Made by a program: the position numbers and the translations under genes. Below the pieces are notes generated by a model, which made no database searches, was not told the origin of the DNA, and saw only the letters and a list, made by a program, of their open reading frames with translations. Below are positions 2,925-44,397 of a DNA stretch of 64,000 bases, piece by piece; the stretch's first letter is position 1, and the number at the start of each line of letters is the position of its first letter. This DNA comes from Candidatus Uhrbacteria bacterium (GTDB taxonomy: Bacteria > Patescibacteriota > Patescibacteriia > JACQRZ01): NCBI GenBank assembly GCA_016206155.1, contig JACQSC010000001.1, positions 5,105 through 69,104 of the forward strand, written 5' to 3'.

Positions 2925-3476
2925 ATGCATTTTTTACGTTTTGTCATTGCCGTTTTTGCGCTGACGGTTATCCCGATCCTCGTCGGTGTCGGGGTTGTTA
3001 TTTTTTCAAATACCCTTAAACCCTCCACGGGTTTGGCTGTATTTGACAACCGTGATTTTGGCATATCATTTTCCTATCCATCGGAGTGGAAAAAAGAGTA
3101 TCCATCAAAAACGATGATTCGTTTTTCTCAGGACCCAGTTGCCATGATCTTTGAGGGGAAGGAGCTGGATGCGCAAAAAATCCGCACGCTTGCAAAGTAC
3201 ACAAAAGAAAATCTCAGCGAGATCGCAGAGTCGGCGGAGGCATCGGGGTTTACTTATGTATTGGAAGAATCGGCGCCGGCGATGCTTGGCGGAAAAGAGG
3301 CGCATCGTATTTCTGTACTGATGGAGAAAGAGTGGCATACGCTTCGCGTCGTGCAAGTATGGAGTATCGTAAACGATCGAATCTATGCAGTGTCGTTTTC
3401 CGCGCCTCTCAATGGCTGGCCCACTGCTGTACAATCGTTTGAAAACGTGCTTCAATCACTCAAAATAAGGGATTAG
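2925..3476 (+). CDS. hypothetical secreted/membrane-anchored protein (PsbP/DUF1795-like fold suspected)
   Basis: N-terminal TM segment followed by a soluble domain; weak resemblance only. Confidence 0.4.
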   Translation: MHFLRFVIAVFALTVIPILVGVGVVIFSNTLKPSTGLAVFDNRDFGISFSYPSEWKKEYPSKTMIRFSQDPVAMIFEGKELDAQKIRTLAKYTKENLSEIAESAEASGFTYVLEESAPAMLGGKEAHRISVLMEKEWHTLRVVQVWSIVNDRIYAVSFSAPLNGWPTAVQSFENVLQSLKIRD

Positions 3477-3504
3477 GTTATATGGATTAGGGACTAGTAT
3501 TTAC

Positions 3505-3533
3505 TAACCCCTAACCCCTAACCCCTAACCCCT
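3505..3533. repeat. (CCCCTAA)x3.5 telomere-like heptamer array; G-rich complement could form a G-quadruplex
   Basis: taacccctaacccctaacccctaacccc lies between the convergent/adjacent genes; an inverted TTAGGG partial copy sits at 3487-3492. Confidence 0.8.
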
Positions 3534-20157: not shown

Positions 20158-20385
20158 ATGCGTTTTCTTGCCGATGAGAACATTCTCACGCACGACAAGG
20201 ATTTTACATACCAAGAAAAGGTGCCGGTAATTTTGTTGCGTTTTAGAGATCAGAAACCGATCAACGTCAAAAGGGGATTAATCGGATTTTTTGATCGTCC
20301 AGAAGTTGGGAGACTTAAAAAATCGATTACCGCTGTGCTGTCAGAGTACGGCGTTGAATTCCATAAACCGTTTGAATTGCGATGA
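20158..20385 (+). CDS. DUF5615/PIN-like (Mut7-C type) putative toxin
   Basis: N-terminus MRFLADENI; adjacent to the DUF433 partner. Confidence 0.45.
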   Translation: MRFLADENILTHDKDFTYQEKVPVILLRFRDQKPINVKRGLIGFFDRPEVGRLKKSITAVLSEYGVEFHKPFELR

Positions 20386-23918: not shown

Positions 23919-23922
23919 AAAA

Positions 23923-24006
23923 AGGGTATAGCGTTTAGGGTACAGGGTATAGGGGGGGGGAATTCTCTTCTAAACCCTAAACCCTAAACCCTAAACCCTA
24001 AACCCT
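23923..24006. repeat. inverted heptamer arrays: G-rich TTTAGGG/AGGGTAYA block followed by (CCCTAAA)x4
   Basis: gggtatagcgtttagggtacagggtataggggggggg ... ctaaaccctaaaccctaaaccctaaaccctg; the two halves are mutually complementary. Confidence 0.8.
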
Positions 24007-26377: not shown

Positions 26378-26609
26378 TGTCACTATATACCACGACTTAC
26401 AGCAGGCGCGGGGGAAACGGTGACTGTCCCCGTTTCTACCCCGTTTCTACGACGGCTTATGGTTGAAAGAGTTATGCACAGCCGTTGCTTCTTGACGCCG
26501 TTTTTATCTGCTATACTGGTGGCATGAGGAAATTTTTCTCTCACATTTTTTATTCATACACACGGTGAAGACGCGTAAGTCTTCATTTTTATTTATGTCA
26601 AGAAACACT

Positions 26610-29600: not shown

Positions 29601-32600
29601 GTAGTCATTATGCCAAGCGGATTTAATGTCACCGGCGCGGTCGCGGCAGGGCTCAACCTTGTGTTCCCGACTGATTCGGCAACAGGCATTCAACTGCCCC
29701 AGCCGGGATTTAATTTTAATCCATCAACAAATACCACATTCACTCATTATCGCATTGTATTGAGCGCAACTCAGGATTTTGCAACGGCGCTGTGGAACTA
29801 TGTTTTTCCAAAGCCGGATACGCTTGGCACGAACGGAAGCCATTGCAGTGCGACATCGTGTAATGTGAACTATTCAGCGGGAAATTTTCTCACAATCACT
29901 CCCGCTTCGACGCTCACATCAAATACAACCTACTACTGGAAAGTTGAAACCTATCAGGATCCAACACCGACAACGCAGTTCGCGTCTACGGATGTCATTG
30001 AGCTGAACAGGCGGGAAAACACGCCGGTGCGAAGTTTTACAACCTCGGCTTCTGTGACGGATGTTCAGCCGCCGCAAATAGAACATCGTCCAATTGTTCA
30101 GGCGCGCGCAAACGCGGTAGCTACCGTGTACGCGCGTGTACTAGACAATGTTGCAAACGCGAACACAACGCCTGCCCTTGCCACAACATTGTCTGCCTGT
30201 GCCGGTACCGGATGCACGCCTTCGACATCAACACTGCCAAGCGCAAGCGCGACTGATGGCGTTGTCGCCGGAACGCTTGCGCAGAACGGATACTATAGTT
30301 ATGTTCTTCCCTCCGCGTTTATTACCGCGACTGTCGGAACGGTTGTGCGGTATTATATCACCGCTTCTGACGGTACCAATACGAGCAATTTTTATCAGTC
30401 GGGCGGGACAACGCCGTTTCAGTTCACAACTACGGCGGCTATCGCAACCAGCGGTGTCACGATTACCGGTACGGTAAAAGATACCAGCGATACGTGCGCC
30501 ACCGGCGTGCAGGGCGCGCTTGTGTTTGCCGAAGGGAGCGGGTTCAGCGCGACAACAGGCGCGGACTGCGCCTACACACTGGGTGCGGCAAATAACGGAT
30601 TGGCCGTAGGATTCCCATATGATCTTGTTGTCGCGAGGGATGGATACTCAACCCAGCGGAGAGATGCCGTTTTGGCAGGGTCAACAAGCGTTGCGGTCCA
30701 ACTGGGGCAGGGCGCTACCGGCGGTTTTGGTGGAGATACCACACGGCCCCGTGTACTGCGCTCAATGCCCGGTGACAAGATGCAGAATATGCCAGGAAAT
30801 GATTCAAACATGAGGATTTTGGTTGTGTTTGATAAACCAATGAGCCAGTCGTCGGTATTGACAAACGGCAACATGGTGGTCAATTCCGTGAATGTTCAGA
30901 CAGGGGTTCTTACAAACATTACCCCAAACGGATCATGGGCATATTACTCAACCTATACCATGCCGTTTGGCGGGACAGAATCAAATGTCGCGGTATGGTC
31001 GTTTACCGGCACAAATACATTCGGTGACAACAAGACCATTGCCGTAAAAGTGACGCCGAGTGTTACTGATTCATCAGGGAATGCAGTGCAGGGGAACCTT
31101 ACTGACGGGAGTTATTCGTTTTCGTTCACAACCGGATCAACCGCAACATCCGTTGGTTTTAACACGGCAACCGGAACGTTTGCCGATGGCGGAGTGTTCG
31201 GTCAGGGTCAAAATATCGCGCCGCACGTGACGACCACTGCGCCGTCCATGGGTTCGCCAAGCGTACCGCGCAATACGAAAATCATGATTAATTTCGACAC
31301 CTCAATGGCCGATGATGCCGCTGGTACGTATACGCTTGCAAGCGCGGTGAAGCTGTTTGAGGTGTCCTCGGCAGGCGCCGAAACAGACGTCACATCATCG
31401 GCAATAAACGCCGTCACGCTTACATCTGATAAAATGGCCGCAACTGTTACACTGAAAACAACCTATCCAAGCGCTTGCACAGGCGCGTCCTGTGGCGTGT
31501 TTAAGGCAACCACCCGTTATCGCCTGAAGGTGCTTGGGTCGGCAAAAGCCGCAAATGGCATGACCATGCGCGCCCCGGGACAGGAAACGCAAGTGGCGTT
31601 TATGAGCGACTTTACAACATCCGCGTCATCCGACACGGTCGCGCCAACTATTGTCGGATCTGATCCGACGACGAACGCGACCGACGTTCCCTCGATGCTC
31701 GGGTCTGTGAGCGTGTCATTTGATAAGGATATGGATTCCTCATCGCTTACGACTTCAACGATGACTCTGACGACCGGCTCAACAGCGGTTACTGGAACGG
31801 TTGATTATCGACCGATGGAGCGAACCGCGTATTTTATTCCTTCGCGCGTTTTGACGCCGACAACGCAATACACGCTCACTCTCACTGCGGGGGTTCGAGG
31901 AATCAATGGCACGGCAATTGCGGCGGCAACGCGCGCGTTCACAACCGGATCTGCCGACACGTCCGCGCCTACTGTCACATCACTGACCGCGGATGACACA
32001 AACATCTCAATATCATTCAGCAAACCGATGAACTCATCGCCGGCAACCGATACGACAAACTTTACGTCAAGCGTATTGCGTGTTGCCAGCTACACGGTGA
32101 AATACGGAACAGCAGGGTTCAACGCGGCAACTGCGGGTACAACGCTTACACTTCCAGCAACAGCACAGATTAGCTATGACGGGAAGAACAATTCTGTGAT
32201 GATTTCAGGATACCGCCCGACGAGTACCACTGCGGCACAAGTTCAGGGACAACAATTATATGTTGCGGTTGCAAACGCAAAGGACATCGGCGGCAACGCG
32301 ATTAGCACATCAGGGACTGCTCCGGATACGGCAAATACCAGCCGCGCAACCGTGCAGAATAGCGCGACGACCCAAGGGCAACTTGGGCCGATGACCATTA
32401 CCAATGACATGATGAAGGCGGTTGGTGATTTCAAGCCAATCACATTTTCCTCCGCAACATTCGGATTTGCGCCGCAAACAGAAGTACGACCGTTCAATAT
32501 GATGACCGGCACCACCACAATTTACGGCGTGCATTTGTCTCTCTCACGGCAAATACCGGATGGAGGCGCCATCGTGCTTACCTTCCCGCAAGGGTTTAAT

Positions 32601-35600
32601 GTATCCGGCGCAAAACAGGATATCAACTCTCCGAAACGCCGCGACATAAACGGGCCTGGCACAGGCACGGTCACGTTCAAGTGTCAGACGAACGTCGCGG
32701 GAATGTCGGCGAAATCCTGCGGAGGCGGCGCGGCAAATGCAGATGATACCGGAACCGCGCAAGGCGGCCTTGCCGATGACGGTGTGGTGGTAAACGCCAA
32801 CGCGCGAACCATTACCATTTATGTGAGCGGGGCAACCAATAGCGAAGGACATGATGTTCTTGATTTTGACATCGCGGGCATCGTTAACTCAACCGTTCCA
32901 AAGGACTTCAACACGACCGGCTATACCGTCAGCATCGCGACAAAGAACGGTACGACAAATCTTGAAACACTGAGCTCCGTGCCATTTTTTATCCAGTCGG
33001 CAGGGACTACCACCTATACGCTCACCGGAACGATTACGGCGACAAACAACGATCAAAACGGGACAATATCGGTATTCCTTGACTCGCCGATGACCGGCCC
33101 GCTTGAGGCAACGTCCGCGGATTTTGCCGGCGGGCAAACAGCAACATATTCATTTACCAATCTTCCGCCCGGTGATTATGGATTGAGAACAGAACCGTAC
33201 GTAAAGATTAATGATACGACTGAATTCCTTGGGAAATTTCCTGAGCGTGTGATGATGAGCGCAAACACCGTGCGCAATTTTACGCTCTCAAGCGCAACTG
33301 CCGCAGGCACCGGAACCTCCGTGACCGTTTCCGTAGACGGACCCTCAAGCGAACCCATTGATATTTTCGCAAATGGCCCGGCCGGATTCCGCGTAATGCA
33401 AAAGACGCTTGATACCAATGCCGGCGCTGAAAACTTTACGATTCGCCTGTCAAATGGCGATTGGTTCCTTGGCGTCGGACCGCAAATGCCAAAAGGACAG
33501 ATGTCTGGCCCGCCGCCTTCGCCGAGCTATCTCCCGCCGCGGCCGGTCAATATCCGTATTAACGGCGGTGTATGTACCATTGAGGGAACTGAGACGTGCA
33601 CCAAGGCATTCACGTTGACCGCATCAACAAAACAAATACGTGGCGTTGTAAAGGATCTTGCGAATAAAGTTATTGCAAACGCGGAAGTGTATGCGTATTC
33701 TCCCGCGGGAGCATCAATGGGAAACTTCGCGAAAACAGATACGACAGGAACGTTCATCCTGAACATCACCGAAGGCGTATTTAATGTCGGCGCCATGATT
33801 CAGGGTATGCCGCCTTCAAAAGAAGTGCCGGTTGAGGTAACAAGCCACACTACGACCTATCTCAAGATAGACGGAGCCCAAGCAGCGATTAGGCCTGACG
33901 CGGCCGCGACGGCGTTCGTGTTGAAACTCGCAAAGCCTGATTATACGATTTCGGGAAAAGTGACTGACGGAACAAATGTCATCAATGGAGCGTCAGTGTA
34001 TGCGTATAAGCAGGGGGCGCCGGGACACGCAACGGCTCCGACAGATAGCTCCGGCAATTATTCACTCTTCGTGTCAACGGGTACATGGAAGGTCGGGGTC
34101 TTTTTGCCGAAATACGGAAATCTTACGGAACAGACCGTCACAGTCACAACGGCAAATGCGACTGACATCAATTTCTCACCAACAGGAACCGGAACATTCT
34201 ATGCCGTGTCAGGAACCGTGACTGTTGGCGGCGTTGCCCGAGAGGGGGCGCAGGTGCGTATTAAGAACAGCGGCTATTTTAATGACACACGTACCGATTC
34301 ACTTGGCGCGTACAGTTTTAATGTGCCGCAAGGGACAGGATACATTGTTGACGGATTTGTGCCGGGTGTAGGAGAGCTCGCGCCATTGACGGCATTTGAT
34401 GTTTCAGCAGCAGTTGAGAACAAAAACCTTACGGTCGCGACGTTGCGCACCATCACCATGACATTCTCCTCATCGGTGGCAAATGCGTTTGTTGAACTTC
34501 GCTCAACAACAGGATCAAACATTAGAAAGCAGATAAAGAATTCGACAACCGGAACGCTGTCCGCGCCTGACGGGAGCTATATCGTGAATGTCGATCTTCA
34601 GGGCGCGCCGATTCCGTTTACAGCCGTTGCCGCAACTGACGGAAATACAACATACGCAAGCGCAACGGGCGTTGTGACGGTGAATGGCGATGAGGGCCTT
34701 ACGGTTACAGTTCCCACCCTTCGAGCGCTTACCATTACTGTTCAAGATGGATCAAGTGTGGCACTGGCAGATGCATGGGTTGAACTTATGAATCCGACCA
34801 GCGGTGAACATTTCGGAAGCAAAACAGGAACAAATGGTCAGGCAACACTGCGCGCGGCTGACGGCACATACTTTATTAATGCAATGAAACCGGGGTATTA
34901 CCGTGCGCCGACATCGCTTACGGTGAGCGCGAACGCAGCCCAGACACTTACGCTTACGGCAGCGACACGAACCATAGCAGGAACCGTATATATCGGATCA
35001 ACGGGTGCCGCGAATTCGTTTGTACGCGCCGAAAAGCAGGGTGGCGGGTTTGGCGGAGCAATGACAGACGCAAACGGACAGTATACGCTCTCTGTGGCAG
35101 AAGGAATATGGAGAGTATTCGCAAAAGCTGAAGGATATGCGGAAGCGGAACTGAGCGCCACCGTTGATACAACAACCGCATCGGCGACCGGCAAAGATAT
35201 TACCCTTACTACAACCGTTACGGTGTCAGCGCCTAAGTCAAAGCCGATGACGCCGTCAACCGGCGGCAGTATTGAAGATACATCAGCAGGCATTAAAGTG
35301 AATGTGCCGGCAAACGCGCTTGGCAGTTCATCGTCAGCCGGAAACATGCAGGTAAAGAAAACAACGAACTTTACCAAAACAGAAACCGCGCGACCGGTCG
35401 CGGCAGTAGAGATTAGCGCGACTGACGCAAATGGCACGCCGATCAAAACATTGACAGAAAGCGTAACAGTTGAATTGAGTTACACAAAAGCAGAACTCGC
35501 GACAACAGCATCCTCTTCAGATACATCCATTAATACAAAGTCAGAAATTGAAAAACTCGATGTTGGGTTCTGGGATGAATCGGTATCAAACTGGACGACC

Positions 35601-37775
35601 TTGCCAACTACGACTACATATGTGGATTCAGCCGGTGCGGTTGTTACAAGTCCGTCAGAAGATCTTTCAAATGTCGCAAGTGTGAAATTAAGCGCGCTTA
35701 CCGATCACTTCTCCTTGTTCGCGCCGGTAGTCCCGACCGATCCGTCAGCGCCATCAACGCCAACAAACTTCGCGACAGGCACGGCGACAACAACAACGAT
35801 TGTCCTTGGGTGGTCCGTCGTATCCGGCGCGACCGGCTATAACATCTACCGGAGCACAAGCTCGACAGGAACATTTAGCCGCCTTGGTTCAGAGCCAACG
35901 GTTTCTAGCGGTTCGACTGGCACGTATACTGACAGCGGACTGTCCGCGAGTCAAACGTTCTACTACAAGATTTCTGCGTTGAACAATAACGGCGAATCTG
36001 CCGCGTCTAGCGCCCTGTCCGCAACATCAGCCGCCACAACGTCATCGAGTACAAGCTCTGGGGGTGTTGTCTCAAGTTCGAGCTCTTCCTCACAAACGAC
36101 AACCACCACCACGACAGCAACAGCCATTACCGCAACAAATGTCTCTGTTACCAACACAAACACGGTTGCCGTGGTGACAAAGGGCATAACAGCAAGCACA
36201 CTGGGTGTTTCGGCGATTAACGCGGCCAACCTTGAGGTAAAGCAAACCGGAGCGGCAACAACGGCAACAACGGAAAAGAAGGATGTCGCGGCGCAGCAGC
36301 TCAAGGACATGAAGAGCGTTGATGCGACCGAGAAAAAAGCTCAAGATGCTTTGGCAACTCTCGAGAGTATGGTCACAAAAGGTACGGTCGCCCCTCTCGC
36401 GCTTTCGCAGAACGTGACACGCTATGAGGTAAAAGAGAAGACAACCGGAAAGACCGCCTCGGTTACGCGCGTCGAACAACTGTTTGCGCCGACAAAGGAC
36501 ACCAAAGATGTTACGATTGTGATGACGGTTCCAAAGTCAGTGGCAGAGCGCGCTTCATTGCTTACGTTCACGGGTGTTCAGCCGGAAGTTTTGCAGGATG
36601 ATCCCATCCTTCGCTGGACCTTTGCTGAAGTAAAGGCAGGAGAAACAAAGGATTTGTCCTATCAGGCAAACAAAAATCTTGAGAAGCTTGAAGTAAAGAA
36701 TGTCGCCGTCGCCGCAGTGCCAGCATTCGTAGAGATGGCATGGGGCTTCAAGGATGGCAAATTCCAACTGATGCCAAAGACCGAAGCCGATGCCTTGCAT
36801 GCAGCGGCTGAAGCATCCGCCGCCGCTAAAGCTCCGGCGAGAGAAGAGAAGAAAGCTGAAGTTTCCCTTGAGAAAAAAGCCGCAGCCATGCCGGCAAAAG
36901 CGGCAGCGAAGCCGCTGGTAGCGGTAAAAGCACTGCCACATCTTTCGGCGAAGGCGGCAAAAGTTGTGACCAACGTACTAAAGCGCAGCGCTATCATTCT
37001 TCTGCCTGAGGCAAAGGGAGCGGCCTATTATCTCGACCCAAAGACGCAAAAACGGGCATCCCTCGGCCGTCCTGCAGAGGCATTTGAGGTGATGCGTTCG
37101 TTCGGAATCGGTATCACAAATAATGACCTTGAAAAGATTCCGGAAAGCACCAAAGAGGGCGATACGGCATTCGCCTGTAAGCACGCCGGTAAGATTTTCT
37201 TGCAAGTCCAGGCAAAAGGCGAGGCATGGTATGTGCATCCCGAGAATTGCAAGCGCTACTTCCTCAATCGTCCGGCCGATGCCTTTAATCTCATGCGCAA
37301 GCTTGCGCTTGGTGTCTCCAATGCGGACGCAGACGCGATTCCGACAAGCGAGAAGTCAAAACCGGTAACGCCTGCTACACCGGCGCAACCCGCACAGCCA
37401 AAAGAAGATCCAAAGAAGGCATCAGACAAACTTTCGCCCCTCGCGCGTCCATTGTATAGCGGCATGAAAGGGGATGATGTCAAAACGCTTCAGACCATTC
37501 TTACGCAGAAGGGATACTATACCGGTACAGTTTCTGGCACTATGGACGAGGCAACTTTTACAGCGGTGCGCCAGATGCAGTTAAAAGAGGGTCTGGTGAA
37601 GAGTGTGGCTACTCCCGGGTATGGCACCGTCGGTCCAGCAACTCGCGCATTTGTCAACAAGCTCTTACAAGTGGAGCCCGAACCGAAAAAGGAAACAACT
37701 CCAGCTGCGCCGAAGCAAAGCGAAGGCGAGGGTGAAAGCGCGCTTGATAAGCTCAAGCGACTTATGAAACAGTAA
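26610..37775 (+). CDS. giant (~3.7 k aa) secreted cell-surface protein with Ig-like/SbsA-like, carboxypeptidase-regulatory-like and FN3 domains, a Ser/Thr linker, two GEAWY repeats and a C-terminal PG_binding_1 domain
   Basis: Signal peptide MTRKAHAFVSKVLYPITIASMVLWSLGPAAFPVPAYA; repeated ..APTI.S..P..GATDV blocks; four GxV.D...A..GA.V-type beta-sandwich repeats; FN3 motif (W..V.GATGYNIYRS); C-terminal LYSGMKGDDVKTLQTILTQKGYY..DEATFTAVRQMQ. Start taken at the third in-frame ATG; the annotated 5' end overlaps a hairpin. Confidence 0.85.
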   Translation: MTRKAHAFVSKVLYPITIASMVLWSLGPAAFPVPAYAAITRNEAVALATGAQSLGVSSSPTAVFGLNLNISAGETFSRARVVIDPSNSFDPSGDLAAIAPGATSGIELYDDAGATSGSFDATDQAIISNNSIIQNPRFSKLALGANILTLDPNVDTTLPYMQGQLVFANVTANAASTGAYAWHIVTANGTGTGAGTTLRLDGNTTAAPTFLASSRLSMIDTPAFGSGSFTINGTSNTTTYASTAATASLGDIIYYQTGTTAGRWGVVTTNFNVTAASVNGANLANGTYKIAKFPSITGSFVVPASGSFTPTGAYGTTTTPVVGDLVLFQQGTGDARWGMVTNNTLSGGSFAINGMTLAAGTYRISTLDTSGGNQMGFQTALMNNTSMSMALGELSFVLTTQNPAATDYGWHITTTGATGVSGAGAGTLRLDNATAAPTYGWTASLVPDIAQAVAADELGANEGNDYFVAIRTSAGAQNGRAVRFIMNPGDIVFSANTPTTTPTLVSSPTYTVSTTAQQSQSAGANTTVMDMTNGFLRLKQSSNFKAVARVQFGSTDAAKTLTSIAISFATANSTTPTWTASAATSSELLDLAATGGGISLWKDGGSPGFGLNGAGDTQVTLAASPVYGASNAFTITPATAPTIASDDVYFIVLKSDTSGVTNNNAFTVNMATNAITTSGTSPTIGVFSTPPIAMDTTAPTIASVSDVPGQSTKLSVRFSEPVQKINAAGALTTTDLTYTNDATDGSGRTVSSISHNPGADIAELTMSGALVAGDFDGTPSSLAAGTSKIEDMAGNVMGTTARNLGSPLIITTSVIPATYVGSVYDATTPLVTFAASGGTGAKTFSGNTQADTDALVALLGASPLAGATGKLTGTVQQNTAGTRNVTIKVTDGVAATATKQFTINVAATQGGDVPGLTNVTPPSGSQGATNLSVAITGTNTSFTSASAVAFLLNGTADTNITVGTVTANSATSITVPVTIAAGAATGSRDVRVTTGNQVVIMPSGFNVTGAVAAGLNLVFPTDSATGIQLPQPGFNFNPSTNTTFTHYRIVLSATQDFATALWNYVFPKPDTLGTNGSHCSATSCNVNYSAGNFLTITPASTLTSNTTYYWKVETYQDPTPTTQFASTDVIELNRRENTPVRSFTTSASVTDVQPPQIEHRPIVQARANAVATVYARVLDNVANANTTPALATTLSACAGTGCTPSTSTLPSASATDGVVAGTLAQNGYYSYVLPSAFITATVGTVVRYYITASDGTNTSNFYQSGGTTPFQFTTTAAIATSGVTITGTVKDTSDTCATGVQGALVFAEGSGFSATTGADCAYTLGAANNGLAVGFPYDLVVARDGYSTQRRDAVLAGSTSVAVQLGQGATGGFGGDTTRPRVLRSMPGDKMQNMPGNDSNMRILVVFDKPMSQSSVLTNGNMVVNSVNVQTGVLTNITPNGSWAYYSTYTMPFGGTESNVAVWSFTGTNTFGDNKTIAVKVTPSVTDSSGNAVQGNLTDGSYSFSFTTGSTATSVGFNTATGTFADGGVFGQGQNIAPHVTTTAPSMGSPSVPRNTKIMINFDTSMADDAAGTYTLASAVKLFEVSSAGAETDVTSSAINAVTLTSDKMAATVTLKTTYPSACTGASCGVFKATTRYRLKVLGSAKAANGMTMRAPGQETQVAFMSDFTTSASSDTVAPTIVGSDPTTNATDVPSMLGSVSVSFDKDMDSSSLTTSTMTLTTGSTAVTGTVDYRPMERTAYFIPSRVLTPTTQYTLTLTAGVRGINGTAIAAATRAFTTGSADTSAPTVTSLTADDTNISISFSKPMNSSPATDTTNFTSSVLRVASYTVKYGTAGFNAATAGTTLTLPATAQISYDGKNNSVMISGYRPTSTTAAQVQGQQLYVAVANAKDIGGNAISTSGTAPDTANTSRATVQNSATTQGQLGPMTITNDMMKAVGDFKPITFSSATFGFAPQTEVRPFNMMTGTTTIYGVHLSLSRQIPDGGAIVLTFPQGFNVSGAKQDINSPKRRDINGPGTGTVTFKCQTNVAGMSAKSCGGGAANADDTGTAQGGLADDGVVVNANARTITIYVSGATNSEGHDVLDFDIAGIVNSTVPKDFNTTGYTVSIATKNGTTNLETLSSVPFFIQSAGTTTYTLTGTITATNNDQNGTISVFLDSPMTGPLEATSADFAGGQTATYSFTNLPPGDYGLRTEPYVKINDTTEFLGKFPERVMMSANTVRNFTLSSATAAGTGTSVTVSVDGPSSEPIDIFANGPAGFRVMQKTLDTNAGAENFTIRLSNGDWFLGVGPQMPKGQMSGPPPSPSYLPPRPVNIRINGGVCTIEGTETCTKAFTLTASTKQIRGVVKDLANKVIANAEVYAYSPAGASMGNFAKTDTTGTFILNITEGVFNVGAMIQGMPPSKEVPVEVTSHTTTYLKIDGAQAAIRPDAAATAFVLKLAKPDYTISGKVTDGTNVINGASVYAYKQGAPGHATAPTDSSGNYSLFVSTGTWKVGVFLPKYGNLTEQTVTVTTANATDINFSPTGTGTFYAVSGTVTVGGVAREGAQVRIKNSGYFNDTRTDSLGAYSFNVPQGTGYIVDGFVPGVGELAPLTAFDVSAAVENKNLTVATLRTITMTFSSSVANAFVELRSTTGSNIRKQIKNSTTGTLSAPDGSYIVNVDLQGAPIPFTAVAATDGNTTYASATGVVTVNGDEGLTVTVPTLRALTITVQDGSSVALADAWVELMNPTSGEHFGSKTGTNGQATLRAADGTYFINAMKPGYYRAPTSLTVSANAAQTLTLTAATRTIAGTVYIGSTGAANSFVRAEKQGGGFGGAMTDANGQYTLSVAEGIWRVFAKAEGYAEAELSATVDTTTASATGKDITLTTTVTVSAPKSKPMTPSTGGSIEDTSAGIKVNVPANALGSSSSAGNMQVKKTTNFTKTETARPVAAVEISATDANGTPIKTLTESVTVELSYTKAELATTASSSDTSINTKSEIEKLDVGFWDESVSNWTTLPTTTTYVDSAGAVVTSPSEDLSNVASVKLSALTDHFSLFAPVVPTDPSAPSTPTNFATGTATTTTIVLGWSVVSGATGYNIYRSTSSTGTFSRLGSEPTVSSGSTGTYTDSGLSASQTFYYKISALNNNGESAASSALSATSAATTSSSTSSGGVVSSSSSSSQTTTTTTTATAITATNVSVTNTNTVAVVTKGITASTLGVSAINAANLEVKQTGAATTATTEKKDVAAQQLKDMKSVDATEKKAQDALATLESMVTKGTVAPLALSQNVTRYEVKEKTTGKTASVTRVEQLFAPTKDTKDVTIVMTVPKSVAERASLLTFTGVQPEVLQDDPILRWTFAEVKAGETKDLSYQANKNLEKLEVKNVAVAAVPAFVEMAWGFKDGKFQLMPKTEADALHAAAEASAAAKAPAREEKKAEVSLEKKAAAMPAKAAAKPLVAVKALPHLSAKAAKVVTNVLKRSAIILLPEAKGAAYYLDPKTQKRASLGRPAEAFEVMRSFGIGITNNDLEKIPESTKEGDTAFACKHAGKIFLQVQAKGEAWYVHPENCKRYFLNRPADAFNLMRKLALGVSNADADAIPTSEKSKPVTPATPAQPAQPKEDPKKASDKLSPLARPLYSGMKGDDVKTLQTILTQKGYYTGTVSGTMDEATFTAVRQMQLKEGLVKSVATPGYGTVGPATRAFVNKLLQVEPEPKKETTPAAPKQSEGEGESALDKLKRLMKQ

Positions 37776-37804
37776 ACGCTTCGCACGCGCCGCTCTATTG
37801 GAAC

Positions 37805-37847
37805 GGGGTCAGGCACAGATTCGCTTCGCGAAACTGAGCCTGACCCC
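37805..37847. repeat. hairpin with GGGGTCAGG/CCTGACCCC stems (same stem core as the tatD insertion)
   Basis: ggggtcaggc-N23-gcctgacccc. Confidence 0.5.
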
Positions 37848-37856
37848 ACTGAACAA

Positions 37857-37899
37857 ATCAACGGCTAAACCGGTTTAGCCGTTGATTTTTGTTTTGCGA
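37857..37899 (+). terminator. strong intrinsic terminator of the giant gene
   Basis: Perfect 15-bp palindrome atcaacggctaaacc/ggtttagccgttgat followed by ttttgtttt. Confidence 0.75.
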
Positions 37900-37958
37900 G
37901 TGGTATACTAGAACCAACTATAATGTAATGTCTAGATTCCCATAAATTATTCATAGAC

Positions 37959-37987
37959 TGGATCCCGGCCTTCGCCGGGATGACAAA
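37959..37987. repeat. GGATCCCGGC-CTTC-GCCGGGATGAC palindromic element (family B, intergenic copy)
   Basis: Reverse complement of the copies inside uvrB and dus. Confidence 0.7.
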
Positions 37988-37992
37988 TTGCT

Positions 37993-38766
37993 ATGTCATC
38001 CTATTACAAAGGCAAACGATCACGAAACATCTTTGATCCTTTATCTCATGAGCCCTTTAGGGTCTCTCGTTCCAAGATCGAGCTTTTTTCCTCCTGCCCC
38101 CGTTGTTTTTATATCGACGTGCGGCTTGGTGTTGGCCAGCCTCCGGGATTTCCCTTTAATCTCAACTCCGCAGTTGATACTCTTCTTAAAAAAGAGTTTG
38201 ACATACATCGTAGCATGAGCACCGCGCATCCCCTCATGGAGGCGTATGGCCTTGACGCGGTGCCGTTCAGCCACGAGAAAATGGACGAGTGGCGCGATCC
38301 GTTCAAGGGTGTTACGTTTCTCCATGAGCCTACGAATTTTTATGTCACCGGAGGCGTTGATGACGTTTGGCAAAATCCGGAAAAGGAGCTTATCATCGTT
38401 GACTACAAGTCAACAAGTAAGGAAAGCGAGGTAACCATCGATGCGGAGTGGCAGCAATCATACAAGCGCCAGATGGAGATTTATCAGTGGCTCTTTCGCA
38501 ACAACGGTTTCTCCGTATCTGATACGGGGTACTTTGTTTACTGCAACGGCAGGCGCGATGTGGCTGCCTTTGATGGAAAACTTGAATTTGACATTAAGCT
38601 GATTCCCTATACCGGCAGTGACTTGTGGATCGAAAGCGCGCTTGCCAGCATGAAGCAACTACTCATGGCAGATGTGGTCCCTGAACCGGGCGACTGCTGT
38701 GATTTTTGTACCTATCGCCGCGATGCGCGAGAAGTCTTAACGAAACTCGTAACTCGTAACTCGTAA
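37993..38766 (+). CDS. PD-(D/E)XK nuclease, Cas4/RecB-like (solo, no cas neighbours)
   Basis: N-terminal Cys motif (C-X2-C) plus C-terminal CCDFC for an Fe-S cluster; IIVDYKS (D..K) and QMEIY (QhxxY) motifs. Confidence 0.6.
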   Translation: MSSYYKGKRSRNIFDPLSHEPFRVSRSKIELFSSCPRCFYIDVRLGVGQPPGFPFNLNSAVDTLLKKEFDIHRSMSTAHPLMEAYGLDAVPFSHEKMDEWRDPFKGVTFLHEPTNFYVTGGVDDVWQNPEKELIIVDYKSTSKESEVTIDAEWQQSYKRQMEIYQWLFRNNGFSVSDTGYFVYCNGRRDVAAFDGKLEFDIKLIPYTGSDLWIESALASMKQLLMADVVPEPGDCCDFCTYRRDAREVLTKLVTRNS

Positions 38767-38840
38767 CTCGTAACTCGTACAGGGATTGGGAGGCGTCGTT
38801 TTTCCAAATTACAAGTTACGGATTACGAGTTACTGATTAC
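38744..38840. repeat. (CGTAACT)x5 heptamer array followed by inverted AGTTACG copies
   Basis: actcgtaactcgtaactcgtaactcgtaactcgtac ... caagttacggattacgagttactgattac; overlaps the stop codon of the Cas4-like gene. Confidence 0.8.
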
Positions 38841-38846
38841 TATACT

Positions 38847-39848
38847 ATGGTTCTCCTCAAACTCCTCCTCATCTTTTGTTCCCTGGGCGGTTTTTTGCTT
38901 TCGTTGTATATTTTTCATAAAAAGCATCGACACGAAAAAATGTTGTGTCCCATCGGGGGGAAGTGTGAGGCAGTTCTTGCCAGCCAATACAATCGCTTCT
39001 TTGGCATTCCGCTTGAAACCATCGGACTGTTTTATTATGGCGCTGTCTTTATCTTCTCAACCGTGCGCGCGGTTATGGGGGGCGACCCCTTTCCTCTCAT
39101 ATCATTTGCGGTATTCGGCCTGACTATTACGGCATTTTTATTTTCTCTCTATCTCACCTTTATCCAGGCGTTCACGCTCAAGCAATGGTGCACGCTCTGC
39201 CTGACATCCGCCGCTCTGTGCACCATCATTTTTACGAGCACATTCATGACCTCTCAGCAGTCGTTCGTTGCGCTCTTGGGCGCCTACCAACCTCTGGTCA
39301 GCGCATTCTATCTCCTTGCGCTTGCCGTTGGACTTGGATGCGCGACCGTGACTGATGTGTTCTTTTTGAAGTTTCTCCGAGACTATCACATTTCTCAAAG
39401 CGAATATGATGTTCTCTCAACCCTCGCGCAAATGATGTGGGCATCACTCGCGGCGATTATCGTTGCCGGGGTTGGCCTGGCGCTCGGTGCGCCCGATGGA
39501 TACCAACTGCCCCACTCGATGTTCGTAAGCTGGATCGTATTGCTTGTCATTCTCATCAATGCGGCGGTTTTGAATCTTATTGTTGCGCCAAAGCTTCTTC
39601 ATATTTCTTTCCGCGAGAAACATGATCATGAAACGGGAGAGCTTGGCATCATTCACAAGCTTGCGTTTGAGTTGGGCGCCGTGTCTGTTGTTTCATGGTA
39701 TTTCGCCTTTTTTCTTACCGTTATTCCTGATACCGGGTACTCGTTTTTTGCGTTGAGCATATGGTACGGCGTGCTGGTCGTCGTCGGCGTTGCCGTTGGC
39801 CGACTTTTCGAGTATCGCATACGCCAATCTTCAAGAACAGCCGTATGA
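38847..39848 (+). CDS. vitamin K epoxide reductase (VKOR) family membrane protein with a C-terminal membrane extension
   Basis: Loop cysteines CPIGGKC and CTLC active site in a 4-TM core. Confidence 0.6.
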   Translation: MVLLKLLLIFCSLGGFLLSLYIFHKKHRHEKMLCPIGGKCEAVLASQYNRFFGIPLETIGLFYYGAVFIFSTVRAVMGGDPFPLISFAVFGLTITAFLFSLYLTFIQAFTLKQWCTLCLTSAALCTIIFTSTFMTSQQSFVALLGAYQPLVSAFYLLALAVGLGCATVTDVFFLKFLRDYHISQSEYDVLSTLAQMMWASLAAIIVAGVGLALGAPDGYQLPHSMFVSWIVLLVILINAAVLNLIVAPKLLHISFREKHDHETGELGIIHKLAFELGAVSVVSWYFAFFLTVIPDTGYSFFALSIWYGVLVVVGVAVGRLFEYRIRQSSRTAV

Positions 39849-42793
39849 ATGATATTTCAAAGCGCGAAGAAGATGTCTTGAGGTTCTGGGAAGAGCATCA
39901 TATCTTCAGAAAATCAGTTGACCAGCGTCCGGTAGAAAAGCCGTACGTTTTTTATGACGGGCCGCCATTCGCAACCGGTTTGCCGCACTATGGCCACCTC
40001 ATCGCATCGTTGATGAAGGATGTCGTCCCGCGCTACTGGACCATGAAAGGGTATCGGGTCGAGCGCGTATGGGGATGGGACTGTCATGGATTGCCAATTG
40101 AAAATATCATTGAGGAGAAGCTCGGACTCAAAACAAAAAAAGATATTGAAAGTTATGGCATCGATAGATTTAACACCGCTTGCCGTTCAACGGTATTGCA
40201 ATTTGCCGATGAATGGAAAAAAACGATTCGCCGATATGGACGATGGGTTGATATGGAGCGTGCGTATAACACCATGGACCGCTCATATATGGAAAGTGTG
40301 TGGTGGGTATTCTCCGAGCTCTGGAAGAAGGGGCTGATCTATGAGGGGAAAAAGCCCATGCACATCTGTCCGCGCTGCGCAACGCCACTTTCGAACTTTG
40401 AGGTGACCCTTGGTTACAAAGACATCAAGGACATCTCCGCAACCGCAAAGTTTCGATTGACCAACGCGGCAGAGAAGCTCGGACTTTTCGGCGACGTTTT
40501 TTTGTTGGCGTGGACAACGACCCCCTGGACACTGCCGGGTAATGTGCTCTTGGCGGTAGGAAGAGAAATTGACTATGGCATATTCAAAAATGGCCAAGGC
40601 GAACATATCATCTTGGCAAAAAATGCCTTGGACCATTACCAATCATTCGCCGGAAAAGACTATAGATATGTCAAAACCGTCAAAGGCGAAGGATTGGTCG
40701 GGTTGAACTACGAGCCGCTTTTTCCTTATTATACAAACAGTGTGCGTGCCTTTCGTGTCGTGGCTGGTGATTTTGTAACGACAGATGAAGGAACTGGCGT
40801 GGTGCACATTGCGCCGGCGTTTGGCGAGGACGACTTTGCGATTGCCGAGAAAGAATGTACCGGATTCATCCAGCATGTGACACTCGAGGGGACGTTCGTA
40901 CCCGAGGTGAGTGATTTTGCCGGCATGCCGGTCAAGCCAAAGGAAGATCCGACGCGCGCCGATGTTGAAATTATAAAATATCTTGCAAAACATGGCAGGC
41001 TTTTTGCAAAAGAAAAAATAGAACACAGCTATCCCCATTGTTGGCGGTGCGATACGCCCCTGCTCAATTACGCAACAAGCAGTTGGTTTGTGCGGGTAAC
41101 GGAGCTGAAAAAAGATCTCTTGACAGCCAACAAACAGACATCATGGGTTCCAGAACACATGAAGGATGGAAGGTTCGGCAAATGGCTTGCCGGCGCGCGT
41201 GACTGGGCGATTTCCCGCAACCGCTACTGGGGAACGCCATTGCCAATGTGGAGAAGCCAGGACGGCGAGGTGGTCTGTGTTGGAAGCGCGCGCGAGCTTG
41301 AGGAGCTTTCCGGGCATGCTATCGACGATCTTCACAAGGATGCGGTTGATGCTATCACATTTGAAAAAGACGGAAAGCTGTTTATGCGCATCCCCGATGT
41401 GCTCGATTGCTGGTTCGAGTCAGGATCGATGCCGTACGGACAAATGCACTATCCTTTTGAGAATAAGGAAAAATTCGAGCAGGGATTTCCCGCTGAGTTC
41501 ATCGCCGAAGGGCAAGATCAGACGCGTGGCTGGTTCTACACCCTGCATGTGCTTGCGGTTGCGCTGACGCGCGGAAAACAGCCATCGATTCCGCTGCGCG
41601 GCCCACTGCCGGCATTCAGGCACGTCATCGTTAACGGCATTGTGTTGGCTCAGGATGGCAAGAAGATGTCAAAAAAACTAAAAAATTATCCAGACCCTAT
41701 GGAGGTCATATCGAGATACGGCGCAGACGCCATGCGGTTCTATCTTGCCGCATCGCCTGCCATGCATGCGGAGAATTTGAATTTTTCCGAAGGTGGCGTT
41801 CGCGAGATGTATAATAAATGCGTCAATACCGTATGGAATATCGCGCAATTTTATACAATGTTTGCATCATTTCCTCACGCGCGGCTCGATCCGCGGGCAT
41901 TCCCCCATATTCTTGATCGCTGGATTCTTTCGCGCCTGCACAATACGCTCAAAAAAGTAACCACACATCTCAATGCCTACGAACTTGCGCAGAGCACGCG
42001 GCCGCTGCTGGAGTTTATTAGCGACTGCTCGCAGTGGTATGTGCGCCGTTCGCGCGAACGGTTTAAGGGTGAGATGTCAGAGGATCGCGGACAGGCGCTT
42101 GCAACATTACGCGAGGTCTTGTGCGTGCTTTCTAAGATCATTGCGCCGTTTACGCCATTTTTGGCTGAAGCGATACATCAAGGGTTAAGGGTTCAGGGTT
42201 CAGGGTTCAGCAAGGTGGAGTCTGTGCATTTAGAGCAATGGCCCGACTGGGACAATGCGTTTATCGACGAGAATCTCGAACGTGATATTGAGGATGCGCG
42301 CAGCATTGTCGAGATTGCGCACGCCCTTCGCGCGGAGGCGAACATGAAGGTGCGTCAGCCGCTTTCAACGCTCGTGTGTTCACAGCCGTTGCCGCGCGCT
42401 TTTCTGGATATGATTGCTGAGGAAGTAAATGTCAGAGAGGTTGTTGTAAAACCCAACCCAAAAGGAGGGGAGGGGTGGCATCTCAGGAGCGAAAAGAACC
42501 TGGCCGTTGCGCTGAACACAACCCTGACCGCAGAACTTGAAGAAGAGGGGGTGGTGCGCGAGATGATCCGCACCGTGAATGCATTGCGAAAAAAACGTGG
42601 ACTGACGATCCATGACATGGTTTCGTTTTGCTATTATACCGACGATCCGCGCCTTACAGATCTCATCGATCGCCATAGAGAAAAAATCGCAAAAAGTATT
42701 TTAGCAGAATCGCTTCGGTTGAAAAAAACAGCGTCAATGGATGAGCTGTCTGTGGGCGATCAAAAGGTTTTCATTTCCTTGAGTGTGACATGA
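39845..42793 (+). CDS. ileS: isoleucine--tRNA ligase (type 2, no C-terminal zinc finger)
   Basis: PPFATGLPHYGH (HIGH), GWDCHGLPIE, KMSKKLKN (KMSKS); start at ATG 39845, overlapping the upstream stop by ATGA. Confidence 0.9.
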   Translation: MNDISKREEDVLRFWEEHHIFRKSVDQRPVEKPYVFYDGPPFATGLPHYGHLIASLMKDVVPRYWTMKGYRVERVWGWDCHGLPIENIIEEKLGLKTKKDIESYGIDRFNTACRSTVLQFADEWKKTIRRYGRWVDMERAYNTMDRSYMESVWWVFSELWKKGLIYEGKKPMHICPRCATPLSNFEVTLGYKDIKDISATAKFRLTNAAEKLGLFGDVFLLAWTTTPWTLPGNVLLAVGREIDYGIFKNGQGEHIILAKNALDHYQSFAGKDYRYVKTVKGEGLVGLNYEPLFPYYTNSVRAFRVVAGDFVTTDEGTGVVHIAPAFGEDDFAIAEKECTGFIQHVTLEGTFVPEVSDFAGMPVKPKEDPTRADVEIIKYLAKHGRLFAKEKIEHSYPHCWRCDTPLLNYATSSWFVRVTELKKDLLTANKQTSWVPEHMKDGRFGKWLAGARDWAISRNRYWGTPLPMWRSQDGEVVCVGSARELEELSGHAIDDLHKDAVDAITFEKDGKLFMRIPDVLDCWFESGSMPYGQMHYPFENKEKFEQGFPAEFIAEGQDQTRGWFYTLHVLAVALTRGKQPSIPLRGPLPAFRHVIVNGIVLAQDGKKMSKKLKNYPDPMEVISRYGADAMRFYLAASPAMHAENLNFSEGGVREMYNKCVNTVWNIAQFYTMFASFPHARLDPRAFPHILDRWILSRLHNTLKKVTTHLNAYELAQSTRPLLEFISDCSQWYVRRSRERFKGEMSEDRGQALATLREVLCVLSKIIAPFTPFLAEAIHQGLRVQGSGFSKVESVHLEQWPDWDNAFIDENLERDIEDARSIVEIAHALRAEANMKVRQPLSTLVCSQPLPRAFLDMIAEEVNVREVVVKPNPKGGEGWHLRSEKNLAVALNTTLTAELEEEGVVREMIRTVNALRKKRGLTIHDMVSFCYYTDDPRLTDLIDRHREKIAKSILAESLRLKKTASMDELSVGDQKVFISLSVT
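42181..42210. repeat. in-frame G-quadruplex-type repeat GGGTTAAGGGTTCAGGGTTCAGGGTTCAG inside ileS
   Basis: Four GGG tracts with 4-nt spacers; encodes GLRVQGSGFS. Confidence 0.7.
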
Positions 42794-42883
42794 GGCCCAA
42801 ACGGCAGTGCGTTAAGCAAAAAAATGTCCCACCACACAAGATGTCCACATACGATAATTGTTCGGATGTGATACAATTATATT

Positions 42884-42916
42884 AACCCCTAACCCCAAAC
42901 CCCAAACCCCAAACCT
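42884..42916. repeat. C-rich heptamer array (CCCCTAA/CCCCAAA variants) downstream of ileS
   Basis: taacccctaaccccaaaccccaaaccccaaacc. Confidence 0.8.
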
Positions 42917-43011
42917 ATGGCCCCCCAAAAAAAGAAAAAGCAGACAACCGGCATCAAGCTGCCAAAGCTCGTTCGCCACACCAAGAAAGCAAAACGGAAG
43001 TAATTTATTTT

Positions 43012-44397
43012 ATGGTAAAAAGTAAAAAGAAAAAAGAGGAAGGCCACGAGCACTTTAAGAGCGCGTGGGTTGTGACGGTTGATATGGGGTATGGCCACCA
43101 GCGCGCCGCATACCCAATGCATGATATTGCCCACAAGGGCATTATCACAATGAATAATTACAAGGGCCTTCCGCGATCCGAAAGAGAGCTGTGGATTAAA
43201 AGCAGGGAGGGATATGAGTTTGTTTCTCGCATTCAGGCGCGCAGCGTGATTGGCAAGTACGTCTTTGAATTGTTTGATAAGATTCAGGAAATTCCGAGTT
43301 TCTACCCTCGCCGCGATCTCTCGCGCCCCAATCTTCAGCTTCTTCAGACCTATGCCATGATTGAAAGGCAGGGTCTTGGCAAACATCTCTTCACTAAGGT
43401 ATTGGTAGAAAATCAGCACCTGCCTCTCCTCTGCACCTTCTTTCTCCCCGCTTTTGCCGCAGAGCACTACGGGTATGAAGGGGAGATCTATTGTCAGGTA
43501 TGCGATGCGGACGTGAGCCGTACGTGGGTGCCAAAAGATCCAAAGCGCAGCAGGATCAAGTACCTTGCGCCGAACAAGCGCGTTGTAGAGCGCTTAAAAC
43601 TCTATGGCGTGAAAGAAGAAAATATCTTTTTTACCGGCTTTCCGCTACCAAAGGAAAATATCGGCAATGCCGATTTGGAGATTTTGAAGAAGGATCTTGG
43701 GGCGCGGCTCTTGAATCTCGACCCGCATCGTCTTACGCTTCACAAGTTTGGACATATCATTAATTATCACCTTGGGAAAAAATATATTCCAAAGCGCGCA
43801 GCGCATCCTCTGACGCTGGTATTTGCTGTTGGAGGCGCCGGCGCGCAAAGTGATATTGGTGAGGCGATTATCAAGAGTTTGCGCCAAAGGATTCTTGGCG
43901 GTGAGCTGCGCCTTCATTTGATAGCCGGAGTGCGCAAGGAGGTAAAAGATTTTTTTGAAGAGCAGGTAAAAAAAAATACACTGGAGGAGGAGCTGGGGCG
44001 CGGTGTTCGCATTTTTTACGAAAAATCAAAACTGGACTATTTCAAGAAATTCAACGAGCTTTTGAGAAAAACCGATATTCTCTGGACCAAGCCATCGGAA
44101 CTCTCGTTTTATACGGCCCTGGGACTTCCGATCATAATGGCGCCTTCGGTGGGTTCGCAAGAGGACTTCAATCGCACATGGCTCAAGACCGTCGGCGGCG
44201 GCATTTCACAGGACGATCCGCGGTATGCCGATGAGTGGCTCTTTGACTGGATTGAGAGCGGATGGCTTGCCCGCGCCGCGCTGAATGGTTTTATTGAGGC
44301 GCCGATTATGGGAACGTACGCTGCGCAGCGATTGGTCCTGACCGCGCACGATCATGAAGCCGAGAGAATAGAAGAAAAGTCGCCACTTGCGGTTTGA
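43012..44397 (+). CDS. GT28/MGDG-synthase-like (UgtP-like) glycosyltransferase
   Basis: N-terminal MGYGHQRAA (G-x-G-H-x-x-A-A) and C-terminal LGLPIIMAPSVGSQE..N blocks resemble diacylglycerol glycosyltransferases. Confidence 0.45.
   Translation: MVKSKKKKEEGHEHFKSAWVVTVDMGYGHQRAAYPMHDIAHKGIITMNNYKGLPRSERELWIKSREGYEFVSRIQARSVIGKYVFELFDKIQEIPSFYPRRDLSRPNLQLLQTYAMIERQGLGKHLFTKVLVENQHLPLLCTFFLPAFAAEHYGYEGEIYCQVCDADVSRTWVPKDPKRSRIKYLAPNKRVVERLKLYGVKEENIFFTGFPLPKENIGNADLEILKKDLGARLLNLDPHRLTLHKFGHIINYHLGKKYIPKRAAHPLTLVFAVGGAGAQSDIGEAIIKSLRQRILGGELRLHLIAGVRKEVKDFFEEQVKKNTLEEELGRGVRIFYEKSKLDYFKKFNELLRKTDILWTKPSELSFYTALGLPIIMAPSVGSQEDFNRTWLKTVGGGISQDDPRYADEWLFDWIESGWLARAALNGFIEAPIMGTYAAQRLVLTAHDHEAERIEEKSPLAV

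Follow-up and report, generated by a model that had tools for sequence, protein, structure and literature searches.

Among long simple sequence repeats (LSSRs, with units of 5-11 nt), heptanucleotides outnumber the other classes in most of the prokaryotic genomes surveyed, and polymerase slippage has been proposed as the cause of prokaryotic LSSRs, as the survey of Mrazek (2007) is reported in two later papers (PMC4679880, PMC4692102). In Xanthomonas, GGGAATC arrays of about 4-5 units form 70-75 convergent pairs per genome that are capable of folding into stem-loops; they lie within 50 bp of stop or start codons between co-directional open reading frames (ORFs), sometimes overlapping the ORF end, and their length and sequence vary among close relatives in which the flanking genes are kept, with no known function (Rehm et al. 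2015, PMC4692102). Related GGGGA(C/T)T arrays, few of them paired, occur in Nostoc (Rehm et al. 2015, PMC4692102). The TAACTGA repeats of marine Beggiatoaceae, cyanobacteria and Bacteroidetes have 2-6 units and are closed by stops in each of the three forward frames; most of them end a few nucleotides 5′ of a start codon lacking a Shine-Dalgarno motif, and 13 overlap the stop of the upstream ORF. For these repeats one dominant heptamer genome-wide and a single inverted pair were reported, and horizontal spread was proposed (MacGregor 2015, PMC4679880). Here we describe an array of the heptamer AACTCGT, followed by a degenerate inverted copy, at the junction of a nuclease gene and a VKOR-family gene in a 64,000-nt stretch of the genome of a Candidatus Uhrbacteria bacterium (assembly GCA_016206155.1, contig JACQSC010000001.1, positions 5,105 to 69,104; hereafter the window, whose own coordinates are used). 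As far as our literature search goes, this is the first example found in the Candidate Phyla Radiation (CPR): the search returned no paper linking heptamer repeats with CPR/Patescibacteria and none containing an AACTCGT array.

The element and its flanking genes comprise the following features:

38744..38779, + strand: perfect heptamer array (AACTCGT)x5.1, the 5′ arm of the hairpin (quasi-palindrome)
38780..38807, + strand: loop of 28 nt, CAGGGATTGGGAGGCGTCGTTTTTCCAA
38808..38842, + strand: degenerate inverted array, the 3′ arm, with the five units ATTACAA GTTACGG ATTACGA GTTACTG ATTACTA
37993..38766, + strand: PD-(D/E)XK nuclease gene with a Cas4-like fold, matching PF12705, whose 3′ end seeded the array
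38764..38766, + strand: TAA stop codon of the PD-(D/E)XK gene, within the third repeat unit
38847..39848, + strand: VKOR-family membrane protein gene, whose ATG in relatives overlaps or nearly adjoins the upstream stop

Positions 38744-38779 form a perfect period-7 run of 36 nt that, read in the CGTAACT phase, contains four exact units (at 38748, 38755, 38762 and 38769) and a partial unit at either end. The 3′ arm deviates from the expected GTTACGA at 8 of its 35 positions, shows a 14-nt sub-period and holds a single exact AGTTACG, at 38814. An earlier interpretation made from the letters of the window (the sequence-only reading) had described (CGTAACT)x5 followed by three AGTTACG copies; the perfect array and its inverted arm stand, but the exact copies number four and one, respectively. 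The long imperfect hairpin that it had proposed is borne out. Segments 38749-38779 and 38810-38840, 30 nt apart, are 81% complementary over 31 nt, and the predicted RNA fold reaches -34.8 kcal/mol (z = -3.66), with none of 200 shuffles being equally good; the DNA fold reaches -17.9 kcal/mol (z = -3.3). The predicted stem is an interrupted one of 28 bp, with 13 of 35 pairs being G-C, and its base pairs 38749 with 38840. The 3′ arm ends 4-6 nt 5′ of the VKOR start codon at 38847. When an inverted partner had to match at 16 or more of 21 positions and to lie within 150 nt, a partner of such quality was found in 1 of 373 control segments.

The nuclease tail K-L-V-T-R-N-S-TAA is encoded by positions 38743-38766, and the LVTRNS codons (38746-38763) together with the TAA are made by exactly three repeat units, in agreement with the previous claim that the array supplies the C-terminal residues and the stop of the Cas4-like gene. 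The protein scored 31.8 against the Cas4 model, below the cut-off of 65, and is Cas4-like in fold only; an exact look-up gave no identical protein on record. In its + orientation the (AACTCGT) array has a stop codon in each of the three frames (closed orientation), and the 80-nt spacer between nuclease and VKOR genes consists wholly of array, loop and inverted arm. The locus does not behave as a phase-variable contingency locus: any array of at least 3.3 units leads to the identical LVTRNS* tail, and only the length of the VKOR spacer varies.

The orthologous nuclease-VKOR junctions of eight relatives, with protein identities of 76-85%, were aligned with that of the window. In three of these relatives (L010, L008 and L002) the two genes overlap in ATGA and the array is absent. 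The relatives without the array have only a proto-repeat, AACTgGTAACTC, in the last nuclease codons (..LVT..); the L010 junction, GAACTGGTAACTCACGTATGA, contains in these conserved codons the imperfect 7-nt direct repeat AACTgGT AACTC. A further relative, L001 (82% identity), shows AACTCGT AACTCGT AATTCGT AACTCGA cc ATG, that is, 3.7 units; a 7-nt spacer and the LVTRNS* tail are already in place there, but neither loop nor inverted arm is. In comparison with L001, the window has two units more, and loop and inverted arm add about 61-67 nt. The number of units at the orthologous site is 0, 3.7 or 5.1, a variation in copy number between relatives as in LSSRs, and the direct array is confirmed by the independent L001 assembly. 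Furthermore, when the inverted arm is set against the reverse complement of the L001 array, 19 of 20 positions agree, and the AAT variant unit of L001 is part of the match. These comparisons indicate that the array grew in place from coding sequence, which accounts for a heptamer unlike the AGGGNNN/CCCTNNN family of the other window arrays.

We think it fairly probable that the element is a heptanucleotide microsatellite of the LSSR kind, born in place, with a decayed inverted copy of itself, generated by slippage and template switch and close to neutral. According to this explanation, the proto-repeat in the nuclease codons would have been expanded by replication slippage in a 7-nt register, a register that seems to be favoured genome-wide in this organism and in many prokaryotes. 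For the second arm, a strand switch or template switch would have produced an inverted copy of the array; the 19/20 match, with the AAT variant included, fits an inverted copy of an ancestral array that was not yet homogenised. The uninterrupted arm would then be kept homogeneous by ongoing slippage, and the interrupted arm would be frozen and drift. The stop-codon content of the unit would decide where arrays are tolerated. The element would be transcribed within a nuclease-VKOR operon and form an intercistronic stem-loop in RNA, or a cruciform in DNA, with the stop codon in the 5′ arm and the 3′ arm ending 6 nt before the VKOR AUG. Most likely, the element is selectively near-neutral.

Comparison with the described systems places the locus close to all of them. 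It resembles LSSRs in its head-to-tail period-7 run of 36 nt, which is beyond chance, in the excess of period 7, in its mostly non-coding site and in slippage as the proposed mechanism; it differs from them in that those surveys, as described in the two later papers, cover direct arrays, and an inverted partner and its polarity are not in that description. Heptamer STRR sequences (short tandemly repeated repetitive sequences) of cyanobacteria belong to the same LSSR kind. As in Xanthomonas, arrays of opposite strands lie in proximity, with a stop codon inside the first arm and a start codon 6 nt past the second. On the other hand, CGTAACT/AGTTACG has no GGG run and lacks the G-tract of the Xanthomonas-type pairs, to which the AGGGTTT/CCCTAAA arrays of the window come closer; the host is a CPR bacterium, and the steps by which coding sequence gave rise to the array can be followed here. 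The placement is also that of the TAACTGA repeats, closed in three frames, overlapping the upstream stop and adjoining a start. Nevertheless, the same-phase unit is TAACTCG, which shares TAACT and matches TAACTGA at 5 of 7 positions, many different heptamers are found here instead of a dominant one, and an in-place origin contrasts with the horizontal spread proposed there. The hairpin has the architecture of the Xanthomonas and Beggiatoaceae classes and lacks their sequence-specific hallmarks (G-tracts, TAACTGA).

Period 7 is the sole enriched tandem period of the window. Perfect runs of at least 2.7 units numbered five at period 7 and zero at periods 4-6 and 8-12; with a tolerant score there were six period-7 arrays, 0-1 for other periods except the multiple 14, and none in block shuffles. 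Besides the array at the nuclease gene, the following were located:

3468..3533, + strand: sister pair A1, a degenerate G-rich arm (9/30 deviations), a short loop and a perfect (CTAACCC)x4.3
23923..24006, + strand: sister pair A2, a degenerate G-rich arm (AGGGTAT AGCGTTT AGGGTAC AGGGTAT AGGGGGG, 8/35 deviations), a loop and a perfect (CTAAACC)x5.3
42181..42210, + strand: (AGGGTTC)x3-4 in open orientation within the IleRS gene (perfect run at 42188)
42884..42915, + strand: single array, TAACCCC x2 and AAACCCC x3, in the spacer after the IleRS gene (perfect run AACCCCA at 42891)
58818..58842, + strand: single degenerate array, CTAAACC CTAAACC CTAACCC
60210..60237, + strand: degenerate G-rich heptamers GGTTTAG GGGACAG GGTTCAG GGTACAG within the TatD coding sequence

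Three of the arrays of the window are inverted pairs (3468-3533, 23923-24006 and 38744-38842), and in each of these hairpins one arm has no deviation from its unit and the other has 8-9. The likeness to TTTAGGG/CCCTAAA inverted arrays that the sequence-only reading had pointed out holds insofar as such pairs exist, as A1 and A2; they are built mirror-wise, though, the perfect arm following the degenerate one. Among the three pairs, G-tracts able to form a G-quadruplex are present in these two sister pairs only. The perfect arm of A2 (from 23970) ends at the GTG start codon at 24007, and that of A1 (from 3504) ends 6 nt 5′ of the ATG at 3540. The single array at 58818 encodes the MetRS tail PLNPKP and its TAA, ending about 5 nt 5′ of the ATG at 58847. 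As judged from the reading frames, open-orientation arrays are also translated inside essential genes: the IleRS array (42181-42210) encodes GLRVQGSGFS, in a length-variable linker where relatives have unrelated sequence of equal length or 3 residues shorter, and the degenerate AGGGNNN units of TatD encode GLGDRVQGT. A putative 28-codon ORF (42917-43003) starting 1 nt past the AACCCCA array would encode a very basic peptide, MAPQKKKKQTTGIKLPKLVRHTKKAKRK, with no NCBIfam match.

The junction between the DUF192 and Na/Ca exchanger genes provides a second case in which relatives can be compared. In one relative (L319, 1800-1900) the two genes overlap in ATGA; in another (L320, 3480-3625) an array of TGATTCC x2 and TGATTAC x2 fills a 52-nt spacer, and in the window (23870-24050) the AGGGTNN/CTAAACC hairpin fills a spacer of 88 nt. 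From this comparison, heptamer arrays appear to have been born independently at one and the same junction. At both the nuclease-VKOR and the DUF192-exchanger junctions the arrays adjoin stop and start codons because the array itself made the spacer between formerly overlapping cistrons, and the location at gene ends is largely a by-product where relatives are comparable (the sites labelled A2 and A3 in our analysis). The CCCTAAA array of the window is confirmed in four independent short-read assemblies (L315-L318) that carry an identical Na/Ca-exchanger protein and all end within the (CTAAACC) array, 28 nt before the gene (positions 1-28); heptamer arrays break short-read (de Bruijn) assemblies.

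The generality of these arrays was evaluated on a comparison set of 1.31 Mb around the nuclease gene, from 80 other CPR species and close relatives, and on metagenome and viral contigs. In the 1.31 Mb of CPR loci there were 18 period-7 arrays, with many different units, versus 0-9 for other periods; their density was about 14/Mb versus about 86/Mb in the window, period 7 being the top class in both. A scan of genome contigs gave a best match of 69% identity. At least 120 metagenome contigs, with GC contents of 27%-69%, contained (AACTCGT)x3. The sequence-only reading had proposed a scan for further arrays; run on the window, the CPR loci and the metagenome and viral contigs, such a scan showed that heptamer arrays are not unique to the nuclease-VKOR site. 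A special status of CGTAACT was rejected: (AACTCGT)x3 had 6 matches in viral contigs, its composition-matched permutations had 6, 1 and 45, and (CCCTAAA)x3 had 45. The idea of a generic process making inverted heptamer arrays at gene boundaries receives support from the 5-6 arrays and three pairs of the window, the other heptamers in relatives, the metagenome contigs and the phages. By tblastn, no orthologues of the nuclease or VKOR genes were found in the listed metagenome contigs, and this lack of orthology to the locus points to independent origins.

A set of 126 AACTCGT arrays was then considered, consisting of 125 from metagenome and viral contigs (L092-L217), the metagenome part being among the matches listed, and that of the window. 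The partner was upstream in 25 and downstream in 5 (about 24% in all), compared with 0.3% in the control segments, so that inverted partners were about 80-fold above chance among the matches listed. Most pairs have the topology (TTACGAG)n, loop, (CTCGTAA)n, identical on either strand; the hairpin of the window belongs to the minority topology. For ACCTTGA, a composition-matched control heptamer, 19 of 50 arrays in phage contigs (L225-L269) had a partner, upstream in every case (19 vs 0). In the AACTCGT and ACCTTGA pairs an arm that translation can read through comes first; the other arm has stops in three frames and lies just 5′ of the next start. Arms of metagenome pairs are often uniform within themselves and unlike each other, as in L145, with (TTACGAA)n versus (CGTAACT)n. 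The lengths of the two arms do not correlate (rho 0.19, p = 0.30; rho -0.24, p = 0.30), as expected if each arm slips and homogenises separately, and a length constraint at the level of the hairpin was ruled out on this basis. Single arrays inside ORFs, with AACTCGT and ACCTTGA combined, were open in 26 of 26 cases and closed in none (0/26). A stop-codon filter accounts for this placement: arrays closed in all frames are confined to intergenic sites and 3′ ends of genes, and those found within coding sequence are open. By a crude ORF-based assignment of gene context, metagenome pairs lie mostly between co-directional genes, and no enrichment of pairs at convergent gene ends was seen in the metagenome and viral loci. 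In one contig (L125:1540-1640), a (GTTACGA)n - loop - (CGTAACT)n hairpin was noticed by eye directly 3′ of a tRNA-like sequence; from this example, heptamer pairs may not be confined to protein-gene junctions.

Several points weigh against a near-neutral microsatellite produced by slippage and template switch. The enrichment of about 80-fold and the strong polarity elsewhere (25 vs 5, among the matches listed, and 19 vs 0) are not predicted by a purely neutral model; selection for some function of the hairpin might lie behind them. Slippage and template switch leave the origin of the 28-nt loop unexplained; the template-switch step would follow from one 19/20 match, and the inverted arm occurs in one assembly only. 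Neutrality and the lack of termination are, moreover, themselves deduced from the letters.

The sequence-only reading had suggested that the arrays might act as terminators, a suggestion that found no support. A Rho-independent terminator or attenuator stopping transcription after the nuclease gene would agree with a long stable stem (-34.8 kcal/mol) that starts at the gene end, and in one metagenome example (L116) the stem is followed by a T-rich tract. However, the sequence 3′ of the stem (from 38841) is UAUACUAUGG, with no U-tract, the loop is 28-30 nt long and only about one-third of the stem pairs are G-C, unlike the G+C-rich stem, short loop and U-tract of intrinsic terminators. A consensus terminator scan did not list the heptamer hairpin, although a canonical intrinsic terminator (15-bp perfect stem, 4-nt loop and T-run) is present at 37855-37888, 3′ of the gene for a giant protein of 3736 aa (26565-37775). 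This textbook terminator indicates that the organism uses canonical ones. In relatives the nuclease and VKOR genes overlap in ATGA or lie 7-8 nt apart, and are taken as one co-transcribed operon; the hairpin ends 6 nt 5′ of the VKOR start, VKOR has no convincing promoter of its own, and pairs are not enriched between convergent genes. Both strands can fold. With nothing in these data supporting termination by the hairpin, we consider such a role very unlikely.

No sign of selection on the sense transcript was observed. The antisense strand folds at least as well as the sense strand for all three hairpins (-38.0 vs -34.8 for the heptamer hairpin; -39.5 vs -29.8 and -45.9 vs -45.4 for the two sister hairpins), and selection on the sense-strand RNA was rejected on these grounds. 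Of the eight substitutions in the second arm, two would allow a wobble pair in the sense RNA and four in the antisense RNA; the remaining two would do so in neither. An Rfam scan of 36000-44000 (E <= 1) gave no match at the hairpin (38700-38900).

Another possibility is that of a functional intercistronic RNA hairpin, which might be a barrier to 3′-5′ exonucleases stabilising the upstream cistron, might bring the stop codon and the VKOR AUG together so that coupling survives the 80-nt insertion, or might be the binding site of a post-transcriptional regulator, as proposed for TAACTGA repeats. REP/BIME elements are enterobacterial intercistronic palindromes, dispersed as copies of one conserved sequence and mobilised by RAYT transposases. 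Like them, the heptamer hairpin is an imperfect stem-loop that lacks a U-tract and lies between co-transcribed genes, which allows a functional analogy (mRNA stabilisation, translation near the stop); it differs in being unique and locally generated, with no dispersed copies in the window and the 1.3 Mb of CPR loci. The frequency of partners far above chance and their polarity in unrelated organisms, among the matches listed, speak for such a function, as does the location of pairs mainly between co-directional genes, from stop to start. The stem base joins 38749 and 38840, with the AUG 6 nt further on. Shine-Dalgarno motifs are rare 5′ of start codons window-wide, and internal cistrons would need another way of starting translation; translational roles have been proposed for heptamer arrays adjoining start codons (MacGregor 2015, PMC4679880). 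Against it, the antisense strand folds equally well or better, the changes in the second arm are not biased to sense G-U pairs, arm lengths are uncorrelated, close relatives function without any hairpin, and there is no conservation on which covariation could be tested. We regard a functional RNA hairpin as rather unlikely; a REP-like side effect on mRNA stability, or on the translational coupling of VKOR to the upstream stop, is possible but unsupported. It has to be noted that, with Shine-Dalgarno motifs being rare in the genome, their absence after the arrays is uninformative. In front of several genes there is a TATACT/TATGAT-like -10 box whose end is 7-9 nt from the ATG (e.g. 16604, 50251, 56039 and 60732), a proximity that suggests frequent leaderless mRNAs.

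A function, or a hazard, at the DNA level was also considered, in which the element would be a cruciform, a slipped structure or a protein-binding array serving as a nucleoid, replication or recombination signal, in parallel with the G-quadruplex role proposed for G-rich heptamers. The folding of both strands is in line with this view, and so are the other window arrays, AGGGNNN/CCCTNNN types with G-tracts as in the Xanthomonas study (Rehm et al. 2015, PMC4692102), and the break of four short-read assemblies of one population within the CCCTAAA array. Nevertheless, the CGTAACT unit lacks G-tracts and can form neither a G-quadruplex nor an i-motif, the difference of heptamers between sites and relatives argues against one specific binding protein, and no candidate binding protein was identified; we give a role of this type only a slight chance. 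CRISPR, telomere and iteron readings were discarded, the arrays being short and internal, with site-specific sequences and no spacers.

Finally, the element might be a small mobile palindromic element (MITE- or REP-like) whose terminal repeats are heptamer arrays by chance. About 73 nt are indeed present in the window and absent from the closest relative, and the window has an unrelated family of dispersed perfect palindromes. However, BLAST of 38780-38846 returned only the self-match in the window and the 1.3 Mb of CPR loci, and the G-rich sister arms had no other copies in the same sequences; loop and arm without further copies there argue against a mobile element. In addition, one of the supposed terminal repeats is a pre-existing local array common to L001, and no target-site duplication is visible. 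A mobile element therefore appears extremely improbable.

The palindromes form an inverted-repeat family with arms of 20-27 nt, 1-23 nt apart, and a core GGTGTCAGG/GGGGTCAGG ... CCTGACMCC:

20720-20773, 58365-58420, 60026-60074, 49981-50057, 37805-37847 and also 54892-54961: members of the palindrome family

Three of them are perfect, with arms of 24-25 nt that are 1-6 nt apart, and the rest are near-perfect. Several lie in frame in coding sequences, namely those of MetRS (between the catalytic and anticodon domains), TatD and the genes at 20382-21503 and 48174-50186, where they encode stretches such as EKMVSGSISEKMEPDTIFS. By its appearance, the family would be a palindromic insertion element in dispersed copies, similar to the Rickettsia palindromic elements.

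Taken alone, the hairpin is an ordinary feature, since Xanthomonas, cyanobacteria and Beggiatoaceae are already on record as having heptamer microsatellites, inverted pairs by stop and start codons included. For annotation, heptamer arrays should be labelled neither as terminators nor as telomere-like repeats. The enrichment of about 80-fold and the polarity give a quantitative hint, and the question of mechanism or function can be tested by a genome-wide survey. We judge it unlikely that inverted heptamer-array hairpins are a widespread, unnamed intercistronic class of bacteria and phages, with a fixed polarity and kept by selection or by a dedicated mechanism in a 7-nt register. If it were so, the fixed polarity would be that of an open arm, a loop and an arm with stops in three frames just before the next start codon, with a selected role such as that of a translation insulator or re-initiation device in genomes without Shine-Dalgarno motifs, and the Uhrbacteria hairpin would be a member of the class caught at birth. 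What stands out at this locus is an unusually clear stepwise history, from overlapping genes to a short array with a new C-terminus and stop, and then to an array with an inverted arm; by this route, such repeats can turn coding sequence into spacers between genes and into new tails of proteins.

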